Shown here: piece after piece, positions 3,580 through 13,550 of the stretch | How the letters are laid out: each line of letters starts with the position of its first letter | Numbering within the stretch: the first letter of the stretch is position 1 | Assembly (NCBI GenBank): GCA_031372065.1 | Contig: JANMKN010000120.1 | Location: forward strand, 1-22,062 | Reading direction: 5' to 3' | DNA from: Abditibacteriaceae bacterium | Lineage (GTDB): Bacteria; Armatimonadota; Abditibacteriia; Abditibacteriales; Abditibacteriaceae | DNA: 22,062 nucleotides | Notes under the pieces: model-generated | The model's input: the letters and a program-made list of their open reading frames with translations, nothing else | Database searches by the model: none | Told to the model about the DNA's origin: nothing | Position numbers and translations under genes: made by a program

Positions 3580-3600
3580 ATTCACTGCCGAGACGCGGAG
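3580..3600 (+). repeat. Left arm of a 21-bp inverted repeat pair (partner 4359-4379)
   Basis: attcactgccgagacgcggag versus the reverse complement of 4359-4379, attcaccgccgagacgcagag (19/21 identical); continues as cgcacaaag. Confidence 0.8.
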
Positions 3601-3616: not shown

Positions 3617-4336
3617 TTAGAGCGCGCCTGTTATTTCGCTTGTCTCTAAAAACTGTTTCTGACTGGCGGCATCTATCGGTTCATTATTGGCATTTAAGGC
3701 GGTAGAAATCATAGTCGAATTGATGATGCGGTGGACTTGTGAATTTGCAACAATTGTAGCTTGGTGCATCACGCCCAAAAAATTGAGGCTATTTTCTGCA
3801 TAGGGTAGCGAACTATTGTTGAGCAATAGAATATGCGGCTGGGCAGGATTGAATGCAGTTAATTGAGTAATGTAAGGCAACAATCTTTTTTCGTTGTCCG
3901 CGAACATCGGATTAAAATCCGTGAGTAACTTTTGCGGTGTAATATTCCAGTCGTAGGCGGCGCGCGAGTAGTCCGCAATCGAGAGTTCGCTTTTTACTTG
4001 CGATGCTTCGTAACCAAGCATCAAAAATGCTTCGTCTGGCGCGCCATCAAGATGGAATTTCGTTGTCACCTGTGAATCAAAGCGCCCCATAGAAAGGTAG
4101 ACGAGATGCTTTCCGTGCATTTCTTGATGCAATGTGCTGAGACGCATTTTCAAATTGCACATCAACGAACGCAATTCCTTTGATGAAACTTCTTCTCGAA
4201 ACGATAACAACGCTACTCCGGGTGCCTTAAAGTTCGTGCGAAAAACTTGAGCATAGACACGACGCAAAGTCACATCATCCCATGCATAATCGTCTGATCT
4301 ATTTTCTACACAAATATGATATTCCGATTCTTCCAT
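3617..4336 (-). CDS. Hypothetical protein, possible TauD/clavaminate-synthase-like Fe(II)/2-oxoglutarate oxygenase
   Basis: HxD (KFHLDGAP), distal His (GVMHQA) and a later Arg (HRIINST). Lower GC than neighbours. Start set at ATG 4336 (MEESEY) because the longer ORF start reads through the repeat arm and the upstream gene end. The ORF is solid; the function is tentative. Confidence 0.55.
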   Translation of the reverse strand: MEESEYHICVENRSDDYAWDDVTLRRVYAQVFRTNFKAPGVALLSFREEVSSKELRSLMCNLKMRLSTLHQEMHGKHLVYLSMGRFDSQVTTKFHLDGAPDEAFLMLGYEASQVKSELSIADYSRAAYDWNITPQKLLTDFNPMFADNEKRLLPYITQLTAFNPAQPHILLLNNSSLPYAENSLNFLGVMHQATIVANSQVHRIINSTMISTALNANNEPIDAASQKQFLETSEITGAL

Positions 4337-4358
4337 GCCATCGAAGTATATCGGGCTT

Positions 4359-4379
4359 CTCTGCGTCTCGGCGGTGAAT
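4359..4379 (-). repeat. Right arm of the 21-bp inverted repeat pair (partner 3580-3600)
   Basis: ctctgcgtctcggcggtgaat, directly abutting the stop codon of the dehydrogenase gene. Confidence 0.8.
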
Positions 4380-5330
4380 TCAAACCACATTTTGCGGCGT
4401 GCCGTTTAAAAACTGCCCCAAATTTTCGACGGCGATATTGAGCAGGCGCTGACGAGATTCGCGCGCGGACCAACTAAAATGCGGTGTGAGAAGGCAGTTC
4501 GGCGCGTGCAATAACGGATGATTTTCGGGCGGCGGCTCGGCACTTAAAACGTCCGCCGCGTAGCCTGCGATTTTGCCTTCGTGTAAAAAAAACGCTAAGT
4601 CTTCTTCGTTAATCAACAAACCGCGCGCCGTGTTGGTAAGTAGCGCCGATGGCTTGAAAAAGCGCAGCGTTTGCGCGTTGATAATTTCGCGCGTTTGCTC
4701 GGTCAGTGGGCAATGCAGCGAAACGACATCGGCTTGAGAAAGTGCTTGGTTTAAAGGCAATCGCGGAAATTCGTTACCTTCGTTTTCACGCCCCGGCAAT
4801 TGCGCGGCGATAATTTGCATTCCGAACGATTCGGCAATGTGCGCCACGCGTTTGCCGATGGCGCCAAGGCCGATAACCACTAAAGTTTTGCCGCCCAGAT
4901 CAATCAATGGCCCGTTCCAAAACGAAAAGGCGTCTTCCTTTTGCCATTGCCCGCTGCGAATGGCGGCATCGTGCGCGCCGACGCGATGGCAGAGTTCCAA
5001 AAGCAAAGCTATCGTAGTTTGCGCCACGAAATTCGTGCCGTAACCGGGCACATTGCAAACCGTGATGCCGCGCTGCCGCGCCGCTTGCACATCCACATTG
5101 TTATAGCCCGTCGCCAAAACACCGATGAATTTTAAATGCGGCGCGGCATCCATCGCTGCCGCGTTTATCAGCACTTTGTTGCTAAAAACTGCCTGCGCAT
5201 CGCTCATGCGTTCGATTACATTTTGCGGCGAAGAATTGTCGTGCAAAGTCACTGCGCCTAACGAGTGCAATGGCGACCAGTCCATATCGCCGGCATCTAA
5301 AGGGCGCGCATCAAGAACTACAATTTGCAT
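4380..5330 (-). CDS. D-2-hydroxyacid dehydrogenase (glycerate dehydrogenase/hydroxypyruvate reductase-like)
   Basis: ATGYNNVD, NVPGY, Rossmann GLGAIG, LHCPLT, NTARG, DVLSAEP and TPH motifs. Confidence 0.92.
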   Translation of the reverse strand: MQIVVLDARPLDAGDMDWSPLHSLGAVTLHDNSSPQNVIERMSDAQAVFSNKVLINAAAMDAAPHLKFIGVLATGYNNVDVQAARQRGITVCNVPGYGTNFVAQTTIALLLELCHRVGAHDAAIRSGQWQKEDAFSFWNGPLIDLGGKTLVVIGLGAIGKRVAHIAESFGMQIIAAQLPGRENEGNEFPRLPLNQALSQADVVSLHCPLTEQTREIINAQTLRFFKPSALLTNTARGLLINEEDLAFFLHEGKIAGYAADVLSAEPPPENHPLLHAPNCLLTPHFSWSARESRQRLLNIAVENLGQFLNGTPQNVV

Positions 5331-7820: not shown

Positions 7821-8762
7821 TTACAGCGAAACCATCCACCGTGCAATGGCGGCTAATTGGTCGTTGTTGGAAATGTTGGCGGCGTTGGTTAAGGTGCCGT
7901 TTTCGAGTTGATTCCAAATTTCTGTTGCCATGTCCGTCACGATGGCGTAGCCGAGAAAAAACGTGGCGGGCGTTAGGTCTTTGGTTTTAAAGGCGTCGCG
8001 GATGCGCGCCAATGAAGTGCGCGCAGTTTTCCAGTGTTCATCAGCGCCCGCCGGGTCAACGCCGCCTTTGAGTTCGCCGAGCGCGAGATATTTTTCGGGT
8101 GAGCCAATGGCAATGCGAAAATTGGAATATTGCCTTGCATCGGCGGAGATTAGCACTAAATCCACGTTTTTCAAGACAACAGGCACATCGAAATTGAAAA
8201 TTAAACTGCGCGGCGCGCCGTTTTTTGTCCACGTTAATGTGGTGGCTTCTAATTCGGCGTCGGCTAAATGGTCGCCTTGTTGCCACACGTTTTGCTTTTG
8301 CTGCCAGTAATATGGGATTTTTTCGAGCGAAAGCTGTGCAATCAGCGCGCGAATGACGATGCGCTGCGCCAAGATGCCCGTCGCGTTGCGCATGGCGCCG
8401 CCCAAGGCATCGCCGCGCGTCAGCAAAAAACGATGCACCAATTCTTCGCGCCAATCGGCGCCCGCCGGTTCGAGAAAGTTAGTGATAAATTCGCGGATGG
8501 CTAAAGTGCGCCCTTCGCCGCGAAAATAACGCGAGGATTTATCGGAAACGCCCGCCGCCGTTAATAAGGCTTCTTGCAATTCGGCTTTGTTTAATAATTC
8601 GGTGGGGCGATTCAGCGGCGCAACGGCGCTTTTCAGGGCGCGCGCTTCGGCAATCAGCGGCGCGGCTTTGCGATTCTTTTCCAAGGCCAACGCCACAAAT
8701 CCGCCGCGTGTGGCTTCGGTAGTTGTGATTAAATCCGCTGCGCTTTTGAGGTGGTCTTTCAT
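7821..8762 (-). CDS. Type II restriction endonuclease, AvaI/BsoBI family (family recognition site CYCGRG)
   Basis: Signature ALGELKGGVDPAGADEHWKTA, KNVDL, RFLLTRGDALGG and ALEKNR. Start set at ATG 8762 (MKDHLKS, 313 aa); the longer start translates the upstream repeat. Confidence 0.9.
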   Translation of the reverse strand: MKDHLKSAADLITTTEATRGGFVALALEKNRKAAPLIAEARALKSAVAPLNRPTELLNKAELQEALLTAAGVSDKSSRYFRGEGRTLAIREFITNFLEPAGADWREELVHRFLLTRGDALGGAMRNATGILAQRIVIRALIAQLSLEKIPYYWQQKQNVWQQGDHLADAELEATTLTWTKNGAPRSLIFNFDVPVVLKNVDLVLISADARQYSNFRIAIGSPEKYLALGELKGGVDPAGADEHWKTARTSLARIRDAFKTKDLTPATFFLGYAIVTDMATEIWNQLENGTLTNAANISNNDQLAAIARWMVSL

Positions 8763-8764
8763 AA

Positions 8765-8847
8765 AAACACAAAGTCCACAAAGGCTTCGCAAAGAAACAC
8801 AGAGGTAAATTTGTGGACTTTGTGTGATCTTTGTGGACTTTGTGTTT
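8765..8847. repeat. REP-like palindromic element (CACAAAG-type)
   Basis: Perfect 19-bp inverted repeat aaacacaaagtccacaaag (8765-8783) / ctttgtggactttgtgttt (8829-8847), plus a 16-bp direct copy tttgtggactttgtgt at 8810-8825. Confidence 0.85.
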
Positions 8848-8852
8848 AATGC

Positions 8853-9764
8853 TTAATCCAGCGATTTTAAGATGTTTTTATCGAGTTCGCCTTCAAAAAC
8901 CGTGGTGGCCGGGCCGGTCATGTAAACGTGATTATTGGTGGCCCATTCGATGTCTAAATCGCCGCCGGGCAAGTGCGCTGTGGCGCGCCGCGTGGCGCCG
9001 CTGATTTTGTTGTTAAGCGCTGCCGCCACGACGCTGGCACAGGCGCCGGTGCCGCAGGCCAAAGTATCGCCCGCGCCGCGTTCCCAGTGCCGCACCCAAA
9101 TTTTCTGCGGCGCCAAAACCTGCACGAAATGCACATTGGTGCGTTCGGGAAAGGCTTCGTGATGCTCGATTTGCAAGCCGATTTCTTTTAAAGGCACGTT
9201 TTCGACATCGTCCACGAAAATCACAACGTGCGGATTGCCCATCGAAACCGCTGTGATGCGAAAAATTTCGCCGTCCACATCTAACGCTTCGTTGACTACT
9301 TGACCATCGGCGTGTCCGTTGGTTTTCTCGCCCGGCACCATCGGAATTTGCGAACGCTGCAAGCGCGGCATTCCCATATCCACGCGCACTTTGAGCGGGT
9401 TGGAGCCGGGATGTGCGTCTTGCAATTCGATAAGTTGCAAGCCTTTGGAAGTCGCCACGGAAATTTCGCCTGTGGCGGCGCCGATGTCGAACAAATACTT
9501 GCCGAAACAGCGAATGCCATTGCCGCACATTTCCGATTCGCTGCCATCGGGATTGAACATCCGCATCCGATAATTGGCGTCGTCGTCGGGCAAAATAAAG
9601 ATCATGCCATCGCCGCCGACACCGAAATGCCGGTCGCAAACGGCCTCACTGAGCGCCGGTAATTTTTCTTCGGGCGGCAATGGTGTTTCCAAGCAATCCA
9701 CCATGATAAAGTCGTTGCCGAGGCCCTGCATTTTGACGAATTTGATAGTCGAAGACGAAGTCAT
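8853..9764 (-). CDS. dapF: Diaminopimelate epimerase
   Basis: KMQGLGNDF, DRHFGVGGDG, NPDGSESEMCGNGIRC, SMGNPH and WERGAGDTLACGTGACA, with both catalytic Cys present. Confidence 0.97.
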   Translation of the reverse strand: MTSSSTIKFVKMQGLGNDFIMVDCLETPLPPEEKLPALSEAVCDRHFGVGGDGMIFILPDDDANYRMRMFNPDGSESEMCGNGIRCFGKYLFDIGAATGEISVATSKGLQLIELQDAHPGSNPLKVRVDMGMPRLQRSQIPMVPGEKTNGHADGQVVNEALDVDGEIFRITAVSMGNPHVVIFVDDVENVPLKEIGLQIEHHEAFPERTNVHFVQVLAPQKIWVRHWERGAGDTLACGTGACASVVAAALNNKISGATRRATAHLPGGDLDIEWATNNHVYMTGPATTVFEGELDKNILKSLD

Positions 9765-9850
9765 ATGAAAAAAGCGATCTCCCGATGAGAAAGTTGTGGT
9801 GAAAATCCGTTTTTGATGTTACCACGACAGAGAGGCCCGGTGCGCGCCTT

Positions 9851-11295
<1,445 letters not shown>

Positions 11296-11442: not shown

Positions 11443-11497
11443 TTGACTTCTTGCGACTTTGATTTATAATGATTTCCAATCTGAGTTATGTAAGGAG
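11443..11497 (+). promoter_or_regulatory. Near-consensus sigma70 promoter and RBS for the 11503 gene
   Basis: TTGACT (11443-11448)-N16-TATAAT (11465-11470); TAAGGAG at 11491-11497. Confidence 0.75.
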
Positions 11498-11502
11498 TTG
11501 CT

Positions 11503-12231
11503 ATGTCTGATTTAAGGACGATTGAGGCGATTAAAGACGCCAAGTTGATACTCTCCGTAGATGATTTGCGCTTAACAACCGACCCCTTCAAATTGTCTGC
11601 GCCTTTGCGCACTTTGCTCGCAGACCGCTTGCAGGAAGCGCAAGATGCCAGCAGTGGGGTTTCGCTCAGTGAAGGCGGACGCACCGAAGGCTCCGGCGAT
11701 TTGCGCGCGGCGCTCAATGCTTTGGAAGTGCTGGTGCGCGATGGTTACAAATTCATCGCGGCCATTGCCTCCTACGAAATCACGCCGCCGCAACGCGCCG
11801 CGCTTTTCGAAAAATACGGCTGGGAACAAGGCGAACTCGGCGATTTTCCCGATGATCGCATCACTGACCTCGCCGCAAAAGCCGCTTTAGCCACGCCGCA
11901 AATCAGCGAAACCCGATTTCGCTATCCAGCAGAGTTGCTGCTTCGCCTTAAAGACGGCCTGAAACTGGTGGATGATTTGAAGCCTTCGGCCAGCACCGGA
12001 GACCGCGAAGGCGCCGTAGATGAGCGCAACGATGACCGCACTTTGTTGGAAAAAGCTGTCGCCCGCGCCCGTTTTTTCTATTGTCAGGCCAGCGACGCCA
12101 CCGACCAAACGCCCGAACTTTCGAAAATCGGAATGCAACCGCGCCGCGACAGAGGCACCGTGCAGCACGCCAATTCGCAATCCGCTAACAGCGCCGTCGG
12201 CAACCCGTCCGAGGGCACAAATCCCGTCTGA
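11503..12231 (+). CDS. Uncharacterised, probably alpha-helical protein with an internal two-fold repeat
   Basis: 242-aa ORF with strong promoter and RBS. Residues 29-84 align with 139-192 (about 15 identities, one 2-aa gap). No family recognised. Confidence 0.85.
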   Translation: MSDLRTIEAIKDAKLILSVDDLRLTTDPFKLSAPLRTLLADRLQEAQDASSGVSLSEGGRTEGSGDLRAALNALEVLVRDGYKFIAAIASYEITPPQRAALFEKYGWEQGELGDFPDDRITDLAAKAALATPQISETRFRYPAELLLRLKDGLKLVDDLKPSASTGDREGAVDERNDDRTLLEKAVARARFFYCQASDATDQTPELSKIGMQPRRDRGTVQHANSQSANSAVGNPSEGTNPV

Positions 12232-12502
12232 CCGCCCTGTTTTTGGGTTCAAATAGCTATGGAAATCGCAAACACGCGGGGTTTTGCGATTTCTATAGCT
12301 ATCCGAACCCAAACACGCAGGGTTTTGCGGTTTTTATAGCTATCGAAACGCCAAACACGCAAGGTTTTACGATTGCTATAGGCATCGAAACGTCAAACTG
12401 CCAGCGGTTTGCGGTTCCCAGAGCATCGCAAAGGTGAAAGCCGCAGGATTTTGGCCGCCGATAGCTATAAAAACGCTAAAAACGCCCGTTTTTGACGTTT
12501 TA
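12232..12502. repeat. Non-coding tandem array, ~42-bp period, ~6 units, two alternating conserved boxes with dyad symmetry
   Basis: ATAGCTAT-type boxes start at 12253, 12295, 12336, 12378 (ATAGGCAT), 12420 (degenerate) and 12461, with spacings 42, 41, 42, 42, 41. They alternate with AAACACGCRRGGTTTT-type boxes. Confidence 0.9.
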
Positions 12503-12531
12503 AACCCAAGTTGACGGCCAAAAGTAGAAAA

Positions 12532-12729
12532 ATGGACGAAGAACTCAAACGCGAAATTTGGCTTTTTATGGACGAACACCGCGCGCGGGCGCTGTGGTGG
12601 ATGCGTTCCGATTATTACCCGCAAAACGCCGAGCAAGCGCGCGACGTTTTACGAAGCATCGCGCGTCGTTGCACGCGTGCCGATTGGATTAAAACTCGCC
12701 AATTGATGCAGCGCCTCGCCTCACAATAA
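12532..12729 (+). CDS. Small protein, putative antitoxin partner of the downstream nucleotidyltransferase
   Basis: 65-aa ORF from ATG 12532 (MDEELK...ALWWMRSDYYP...); its stop overlaps the next start (TAATG). Confidence 0.65.
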   Translation: MDEELKREIWLFMDEHRARALWWMRSDYYPQNAEQARDVLRSIARRCTRADWIKTRQLMQRLASQ

Positions 12730-13550
12730 TGGGCCTTTCTCCGTTTCAAATCGAAGTTTGCCGCTTGCTGGGCGAAGCGCGGCGCACGCGCGGCGAAAGC
12801 TACGTCGCTGGAGGCGCGGTGCTCAACGTGCTGCTGGAAGCGCCGCGCCTTTCAAAGGACGTGGACTTGTTTCACGACAGCGAACAAGCCCTGCGCGCCA
12901 CATGGCTGCGTGACAGCGAACTCTTGCAGCAGAACAGTTACATTTTGCAACTCGTCGTCGAGCGCCCTTCGTTTGTGGAGATGGTAGTGGCGCGCGGCGA
13001 ACAAAGCACCAGTTTGCAATGGGTTCAAGACAGCGCGTGGCGCTTTTTCCCGCTCCTGGAACATCCGCTTTTGGGCCTCACGCTGCATCCCTTCGACGTG
13101 GCGACCAACAAAATACTCGCACTGGTTGGCCGCATTGAGCCGCGCGATTGGATTGACACTCTCACCTGCCACGAAAAGCTGCAACCGTTTGGGCTACTCA
13201 CTTGGGCCTCGTGCGGCAAAGACGAAGGCTGGACGCCTGATATGATTTTCGAACACGCGGCCCGCTCGGTGCGTTTTTCGCCGGACAAACTGGCGCAACT
13301 TGCCTTCGATGGCACGCCACCGAATCCTATCGAACTCGGCCAAAAATGGCGCGCGATGTTAGCGCAGGCGCACGAAATCTTGGAAATCCTGCCGCCCGAA
13401 GAAGTCGGCAAGTGCGTGATGAACGCCGATGGGACACTGTGCAATCTCGGCCCGCACGAACTGCAAACGGCGCTGCAAAACGGCGTGCTACGCTTTCACG
13501 AAGGCCATATCTGCGGTGCTTGGCCGCAAATTGTGCAAGGCAAACCTTAG
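12729..13550 (+). CDS. AbiEii/AbiGii-family nucleotidyltransferase (type IV TA toxin-like)
   Basis: YVAGGAVL...RLSKDVDLF (GG, RxSxDxD) and NKILALVGR...RDWID (KxxA..R, RDxxD) motifs. Confidence 0.85.
   Translation: MGLSPFQIEVCRLLGEARRTRGESYVAGGAVLNVLLEAPRLSKDVDLFHDSEQALRATWLRDSELLQQNSYILQLVVERPSFVEMVVARGEQSTSLQWVQDSAWRFFPLLEHPLLGLTLHPFDVATNKILALVGRIEPRDWIDTLTCHEKLQPFGLLTWASCGKDEGWTPDMIFEHAARSVRFSPDKLAQLAFDGTPPNPIELGQKWRAMLAQAHEILEILPPEEVGKCVMNADGTLCNLGPHELQTALQNGVLRFHEGHICGAWPQIVQGKP

Follow-up and report, generated by a model that had tools for sequence, protein, structure and literature searches.

Why does an array of short, evenly spaced repeats lie directly behind a gene for a helical protein, and do the two work together? 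The locus belongs to an Abditibacteriaceae bacterium (GenBank assembly GCA_031372065.1, contig JANMKN010000120.1, positions 1 to 22,062; this whole 22,062-nt stretch is called the window). A preliminary description had proposed an undescribed protein-plus-repeat system, with the array either processed into small structured RNAs or serving as a helically phased DNA binding array. We find that gene and array belong to an undescribed pairing of arrays spaced strictly by 21 or 42 bases with an all-helical protein family. Judged from its sequence, the locus is a real, undescribed, non-guide protein–array system with putative binding. The proposal of novelty held up: no description of an array paired with a helical protein was found in the literature searched, subscription journals and supplements aside. 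Added here are the downstream and displaced arrangements of the array, its mirror-half anatomy, co-divergence of array and protein at a distance, a 10.5-bp conservation peak, and a link between array period and module duplication.

Results

The Locus and Its Surroundings

The features of the locus are collected in Table 1. A promoter scan found two sites against 0.7 expected, and the near-consensus match of the one listed agrees with the earlier view of a strongly promoted gene. That view also had the array beginning at the stop codon; the adjacency is real, and the start lies ∼8 nt past the stop.

Table 1. Features of the gene–array locus (positions in the window)
Feature	Position	Strand	Remarks
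Sigma70-type promoter (predicted function), TTGACT-16-TATAAT	11443..11470	+	5′ of helical gene; 11/12 consensus matches
ORF for 242-aa protein, predicted all-helical	11503..12231	+	Two diverged ∼105-aa modules (about 1–112 and 113–220) plus a low-confidence tail
Non-coding array	12239..12503	.	Six 41–42-bp units, each made of two inverted ∼21-bp halves
78-nt inverted repeat, unusually perfect	12239..12316	.	Built by the first array units; A1 pairs with B2 and A2 with B1; 34-nt arms, 88% complementary
Small ORF and AbiEii nucleotidyltransferase (type IV toxin-antitoxin-like pair)	12511..13550	+	Directly 3′ of array

The neighbors of the gene and its array are thiC and the AbiEii pair. The AbiEii ORF matches PF08843 at the Pfam cut-off (E 4e-6), the small ORF ahead of it belongs to no family in our scans, and the pair may possibly be cargo of the array system. 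Neither the helical gene nor the array follows thiC in any of three congeners (3/3), and the sequence beyond thiC is different in each of the four genomes compared, which marks the site as an insertion hot spot. One congener (G002) had no array in 400 kb sampled, where ∼19 would be expected at the rate of the source genome, and no match to the query family. In another, the 3′ end of thiC is present again in degenerate form ∼2.3 kb downstream (G001:C527:2544-2627; L084, L086).

Anatomy of the Array

The six units announced in the preliminary description are confirmed by six boxes starting at 12253, 12295, 12336, 12378, 12420, and 12461, with spacings of 42, 41, 42, 42, and 41. A period of 42 was assigned by TRF (scores 164/181) and recovered again by direct-repeat search. 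The two 41-bp spacings break any reading frame; the array is real and non-coding. Units near the gene had been thought the best conserved. This is true of the long box pattern, which is kept in the first three units only, but the ATAGCTAT box is exact in four of the six units, including the last.

Dyads fall at the ATAGCTAT boxes and at the AAAC..GTTT boxes, one per ∼21 bp, and cutting the array at its dyads yields twelve ∼21-bp halves of a single motif in alternating orientation. The short segments between boxes had been listed as independent variable segments of two kinds, A and B. We compared them with random 9-mers (baseline identity 3.15 per 9 nt) and letter-shuffled segments (3.4–3.6), using 5000 draws each. 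Mean identity per 9 nt was 4.87 among A segments (reached by 0/5000 random and 0/5000 shuffled draws), 4.29 among B segments (2/5000 and 5/5000), and 4.69 between A and reverse-complemented B (0/5000 and 0/5000); between A and B on the same strand it was 2.93, which equals chance. The A and B segments are not independent spacers. They are drifted, degenerate copies of one ∼21-bp half-unit, with A reverse-complementary to B.

No second copy of the array was found by blastn in the 6.14-Mb source genome. It is not an assembly artefact, since a 2609-nt contig from run X1, possibly the assembly's own source, covers it with 0 differences, and a 688-nt contig from run X2 of the same study covers its first part, likewise with 0 differences. 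The six units fold at z = −8.05, and the 88% self-complementarity of the first 78 nt is far above the average of the array class described below.

The Helical Protein

The preliminary label of an unknown helical protein was apt: the 242-aa product matched no family in Pfam, NCBIfam, or PADLOC. The structure prediction and fold search suggested there gave a confident AF2 model (pLDDT 94), all-helical, with predicted helices at residues 4–21, 33–86, 95–104, 117–133, 143–163, and 166–196, one of them 54 residues long; they gave no significant fold match and no transposase or recombinase fold. The gene is not the orphan it had been taken for. Its homologues comprise 305 representatives at E ≤ 0.001, with six copies in the source genome, and hosts with names are Verrucomicrobiota and Planctomycetota MAGs. 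Within the source phylum the distribution is patchy (matches in 5 of 301 genomes), and searches of plasmids and phages returned no match.

Alignment of the N- with the C-terminal half by hhalign (90.7%, E 1.3e-6, 95 columns, score 38) lies far above the controls, where the reversed sequence scored 12 and the best of 12 shuffles 17.6; by this comparison, a helical module of ∼105 aa has been duplicated in tandem to make the protein. Many relatives carry a C-terminal FN3 domain (fn3 in 9 of 63 aligned members). The protein is acidic, with a pI of 4.9 and a net charge of −8 (family median −3). Among the positions kept in at least 60% of the 63 family sequences, 14 are Arg/Lys and none is His.

Two named helical families come near. 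DUF6261 (PF19775) is named in the nearest ESM Atlas clusters of the query protein (32–41% of members, score 0.90), but neither the protein nor its 63 relatives nor the source genome matches the PF19775 model. PQLLE (NF052641) gave a weak hit, far under its cut-off (E 0.0016), in another array-linked family of the source genome. By sequence, both would be at most look-alikes of the array-linked proteins.

At two homologous loci (L033 and L038), a short inverted repeat and a presumably HicA-like ORF lie just 3′ of the helical gene. At a third (L014; G039:C142), the region 5′ of the helical gene holds what is presumably the end of a reverse transcriptase gene with a DGR-type template repeat.

Linkage and Co-divergence of Gene and Array

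Within 700 nt of homologues, an array with a period of 41–43 bp was present on the upstream side in 13 of 51 flanks and on the downstream side in 2 of 53, against 0 of 46 far flanks (Fisher p 0.006; the loci are not independent). The idea that an array should lie directly downstream in each homologue therefore mostly fails, but the same type of array occurs upstream or a few kilobases away. After loci were added and duplicates removed (n = 64), 12 loci had an array upstream and 2 downstream, 31 had none within 700 nt, and 19 flanks were too short; one upstream positive (L006), which also supplies one of the five close pairs below and one of the promoter placements, comes from an unpublished genome (G302). 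One 21-row clade of homologues has no adjacent array. In the source genome, five of the six paralogues have an array, and the sixth has an array remnant, cut by a contig edge, that matches two solo arrays.

Longer flanks (20 stretches, 263 kb) revealed arrays 3–9 kb from five genes without a near array and one more beside a new gene; the other stretches contained none. The density of such displaced arrays (5 in ∼157 kb) is only modestly above background (2 in 360 kb, from four of the same genomes; p about 0.03).

All adjacent arrays of the query family are 42-periodic, with identities of 0.10–0.43 at lag 21 and 0.55–0.87 at lag 42. Their sequence differs from locus to locus while the period stays constant, and most show inverted symmetry. 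Across 19 loci, array similarity was 0.77 for the five pairs with protein identity ≥0.6 and 0.46 for the 93 pairs with identity <0.35. In one pair (L173/L178), protein identity is 0.80 and array similarity 0.79, with the arrays 3.9 and 8.6 kb from their genes and different genes in between. Judged by these comparisons, array and protein diverge together in the query family; plain linkage would also yield co-divergence.

A Genome-Wide Class of Arrays

In the source genome, 255 segments have a period of 21 against 4 at 22, and 272 a period of 42 against 2 at 44. They merge into 287 arrays, of which 240 have a true period of 21 and 47 of 42, in 127 sequence families. Only 20 of the 287 are located within long ORFs, and the 42-bp arrays lack codon bias (0.413 against a null of 0.416; control repeats, 0.486 against 0.422). 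The array-linked proteins form at least nine orphan helical or FN3 families with 68 genes, each on a fixed side relative to its array. Within 400 nt of a recognized family gene lie 46 arrays; the majority of the 287 are not beside one. The preliminary description had held that a dispersed repeat unlinked to the gene family would count against the system. The class is indeed genome-wide, yet it is linked to genes: in 17 of 34 array families with at least three members, some array lies next to a helical-family gene, and the solos share the non-periodic flanks of that copy. As an example of such sharing, G000:C365:619-816 and six related arrays form a dispersed element whose non-periodic flanks of >100 nt, with a sigma70-like promoter, are common to the solos and the gene-bearing copy. 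In a Planctomycete, homologues of two array-linked families have 21-bp arrays, as in the source genome (two of three such loci).

Period is linked to protein architecture. Only families with a duplicated module, the query family and c6L, have 42-bp arrays in the source genome, and the single-module FN3 family has 21-bp arrays, as do all five families scored unduplicated whose arrays were measured (c3, c6S, c8, c13, and c15). Duplication does not force a period of 42, since family c1 is duplicated and has 21-bp arrays. Between the single-module FN3 family and the query family, the alignment reaches 96% (E 2e-9), partly through FN3; without FN3, the single module aligns weakly with the two query halves (10.7% and 21.6%). 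For c3, c8, and c18 no link to the shared module was recovered.

Defense cassettes lie between array and helical gene at several loci: an MvaI/BcnI restriction-modification (R-M) system (C94:7860-10981), DarTG (C95:5822-9238), and an Eco57I-like enzyme (C135:23744-28532) in the source genome and a type ISP R-M system in another (G304; L173:1933-7035). TIR-domain and type IIG R-M genes recur next to other arrays, and at L178 and L171 ordinary metabolic genes separate the displaced array from the helical gene.

Phasing, Symmetry, and Promoters

Conservation along the arrays peaks at 10.5 bp, with a power of 0.228 against 0.10 in 181 arrays of period 21 and 0.133 against 0.046 in 29 of period 42; these arrays had no peak of comparable size at 3 or 7 nt. 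The query array alone has no 10.5-bp peak (0.08; six units, register set by hand). In the 42-bp arrays beside genes, complementarity about the dyads (0.59) is lower than direct identity at lag 42 (0.77), and the G-U:A-C ratio is 46:41, without bias. In 21-bp arrays the pooled ratio is 220:134, but it is 11:9 when counted by array. Unit identity falls smoothly with distance (0.77, 0.70, and 0.65 at one to three units).

Of 38 upstream arrays, eight, each of them of the 21-bp type, are separated from their gene by a sigma70 site, and seven have such a site ahead of the array. Promoters at solo arrays show no inward bias, with 11 pointing in and 14 away among 280 flank strands. For the query family in the source genome, a promoter precedes the array at C404, C277, and C34, and arrays of this family, the query array included, usually lie inside the predicted transcript. 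No Rfam family matched the array. The position of the query array in the predicted transcript, its fold (z −8), and the 88% complementarity of its first 78 nt would be in keeping with an RNA role.

Discussion

A Proposed Cognate DNA-Binding Platform

In plasmid centromeres and iteron systems (parC–ParR, sopC/parS–ParB, and RepA iterons), a helically phased array lies beside the gene for its binder, and site and protein co-diverge. By analogy, the system described here most likely works in the same manner. It differs in having no ribbon-helix-helix, helix-turn-helix, or winged-helix family and no NTPase or Rep partner nearby, and in being chromosomal, present in dozens per genome, and without a plasmid match.

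We suggest that the helical protein and its array form a cognate double-stranded DNA-binding platform, with the protein probably binding its own array, a reading to which the patterns above give about an even chance. The array, non-coding and two-fold symmetric, would be a DNA element whose period is fixed at four turns and which offers many sites to the adjoining protein. Each ∼105-aa module would read one 21-bp half, that is two turns, on one face of B-DNA; the two-module protein would span one 42-bp unit, and about six copies might pack as a symmetric oligomer over ∼270 bp. The purpose of the complex is less sure than the binding. Least certainly, it could be a roadblock or silencer in cis, directed at its own promoter or at the genes beyond, such as the AbiEii pair here and R-M and DarTG cassettes elsewhere, and could also work in trans wherever a solo array of its family lies. 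The gene would be gained together with its array, and the two would spread as a lineage-specific module.

We favor DNA over RNA as the ligand because the array may lie upstream, downstream, or displaced; because pairing about the dyads falls below direct identity without a G-U bias in gene-adjacent 42-bp arrays; and because a sigma70 site can separate array from gene while promoters at solos point either way. Of the two branches in the preliminary description, the helically phased DNA array fits best, given the 10.5-bp peaks across the source-genome arrays and periods of 21 and 42 rather than 22 and 44. The platform also draws on the linkage and co-divergence of gene and array, the match of module number to period, the 14 conserved Arg/Lys positions, and congener G002, which lacks the protein family and, in the 400 kb sampled, any array. 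Against it stand the acidity of the protein, the lack of a significant fold match, the 31 of 64 loci without an array within 700 nt, the clade and the long flanks that have none, the modest excess of displaced arrays over background, the missing 10.5-bp peak in the query array, its place inside the predicted transcript with a highly self-complementary start, the pooled G-U excess in 21-bp arrays, the 21-bp arrays of duplicated family c1, and the weak module alignments without FN3.

Alternative Explanations

The array and its non-periodic flanks could instead form the end, or the body, of a MITE-like element of the BrickBuilt or REP/RAYT kind. The helical protein would spread it, unaided or together with a host enzyme; each family would then have a single copy with the gene and several solos, and cargo would be captured between array and gene. 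This is compatible with DNA binding and makes mobility its purpose; we consider it unlikely. The gene-bearing copies in half of the larger array families, the long non-periodic flanks shared by solos, the absence of gene and array after thiC in all three congeners, the patchy distribution in the phylum, and the four cassettes between array and gene all speak for it. BrickBuilt, a minisatellite-MITE of Porphyromonas gingivalis with a 23-nt direct repeat, terminal inverted repeats, and target-site duplications, is likewise an intergenic tandem repeat with common leader and tail flanks, many copies per genome, and promoter elements, and so resembles the solo arrays (PMC4596501). However, the available text of that paper describes no cognate gene, whereas the arrays here have 21/42-bp periods, 127 families, and linked helical genes. 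Shared leaders and tails are seen in other array families of the source genome, and the query array is single-copy. Mobility also sits less well with the lack of a transposase or recombinase family or fold match and of a conserved His at the 60% level, with a query array that has no solo copies and a family without plasmid or phage matches, and with ordinary metabolic genes inside the other displaced cases. Alternatively, the arrays might be read by a host nucleoid protein or made by slippage under a two-turn constraint, the helical genes merely traveling in variable regions. Subirana and Messeguer reported bacterial tandem repeats of constant size and variable sequence (20–21 nt, a few of 40–41 nt, and 52 nt), ventured that a protein polymerizes on the repeat DNA, and proposed nucleoid-protein binding (PMC8161180). 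Their repeats have a fixed two-turn period, occur as many families per genome, and are non-coding and lineage-specific, and the source-genome arrays share all of these properties (lineage specificity in that a congener has none in 400 kb). They differ in that the available text describes no partner gene (the main text of PMC8161180 uses none of "adjacent," "upstream," and "palindrom"), whereas the arrays here are tied to gene families and those of the 42-bp type alternate by inversion. The many homologues without a nearby array, and the many arrays away from recognized family genes, would suit such a host reader. A fixed side and a family-specific period across phyla are hard to explain by a single one, as are the link between module duplication and the 42-bp period and the 127 array families in one genome, and we find this reading very unlikely.

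The array might also act as RNA, co-transcribed with the gene and folded into long hairpins for the helical protein to bind or measure, either as a neutralizing RNA like that of type III toxin-antitoxin systems or as a scaffold. The predicted transcript, the strong fold, the specific complementarity of A1 with B2 and A2 with B1, the promoters before the array in three paralogues, and the pooled G-U excess in 21-bp arrays are in keeping with this. Good folding, however, is expected of any inverted array; the 42-bp arrays show no G-U bias and pair at their dyads less well than they match directly; arrays sometimes lie kilobases away or behind a promoter; and there is no Rfam family. A-form RNA has ∼11 bp per turn and B-DNA 10.5, and the array period fits 10.5. 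Type III systems (ToxIN, CptIN, and TenpIN) also combine a single protein gene with a tandem repeat array, in the order promoter, repeats, terminator, toxin, with one swapped toxIN locus noted in the available text (PMC3401426). The loci here keep no such order, with the query array downstream and those of relatives upstream, displaced, or behind a promoter, and they differ further in their degenerate symmetric units, an all-helical model, and the lack of a ToxN-like family: scans of Pfam, NCBIfam, and PADLOC found no ToxN, CptN, or TenpN endoribonuclease. An RNA role seems distinctly unlikely. More improbable by far is that each unit is a two-spacer guide RNA steering the protein to foreign DNA as in TIGR-Tas systems, a reading that is already largely refuted. 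The superficial layout invites it: like TIGR-Tas, the locus has an array beside one gene, upstream or downstream, with two repeats and two short segments (here ∼9 nt and only about half identical) per unit and a pseudo-two-fold symmetry (PMC12045711). Yet the segments are non-random mirror copies that would pair with one another. Compared with host sequence, as the preliminary description had suggested, split-guide 18-mers from the array gave one source-genome match against 0.82 expected, no excess. That description had seen no Nop-domain Tas gene, and PF01798 is indeed absent from the protein, its 63 aligned relatives, and the source genome, with four archaeal controls positive. The smooth decay of unit identity points to local duplication rather than spacer acquisition. 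By inspection against the available description of TIGR-Tas, the query boxes also lack the box C/D motifs common to its edge and loop repeats (PMC12045711).

Possible Implications of Cognate Binding

Beyond the DNA-binding platform at this locus, we tentatively entertain a wider reading that we think somewhat more apt to fail than to hold: a widespread, so far undescribed superfamily of modular helical DNA rulers with a single or duplicated ∼105-residue module, with or without FN3, two turns of B-DNA per module, each protein reading only its own fast-drifting array. Dozens of orthogonal pairs per genome would then spread selfishly, gate defense cassettes, or capture them. If true, this would account for the long-noted constant-period tandem repeats of bacteria and make the pairs a natural collection of orthogonal DNA binders that use a new recognition fold. 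Repeats of this kind, constant in period and variable in sequence, have been seen in many bacteria without a known reader, and the query locus and its genome offer candidate readers. They also offer a candidate structural rule in which each helical module reads two DNA turns and the duplicated module goes with symmetric units of 42 bp. Since one genome has 68 such genes and 287 arrays, and close pairs co-diverge, specificity becomes accessible by partner swaps. Should binding be confirmed, the DNA-recognition architecture would be one without a significant match among the solved structures searched; it would supply orthogonal parts and might represent a new mode of controlling or recruiting defense cassettes.

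Other Features of the Window

No TPP riboswitch reached the Rfam gathering score before thiC (9764–9904). A gene for a BsoBI-family restriction endonuclease (PF09194, E 2e-121) occupies 7821–8792 on the minus strand, without an evident methyltransferase beside it, and is flanked by an ORF that is presumably DAP-epimerase-like and a beta-propeller-like ORF. At the start of this gene lies a single-copy 30-nt inverted repeat with 9-nt sub-repeats (8765–8847). An inverted, REP-like 21-nt pair at 3580–3600 and 4359–4379 brackets the ORF at 3617–4390, and its sequence has eight genome-wide copies when up to three mismatches are allowed.
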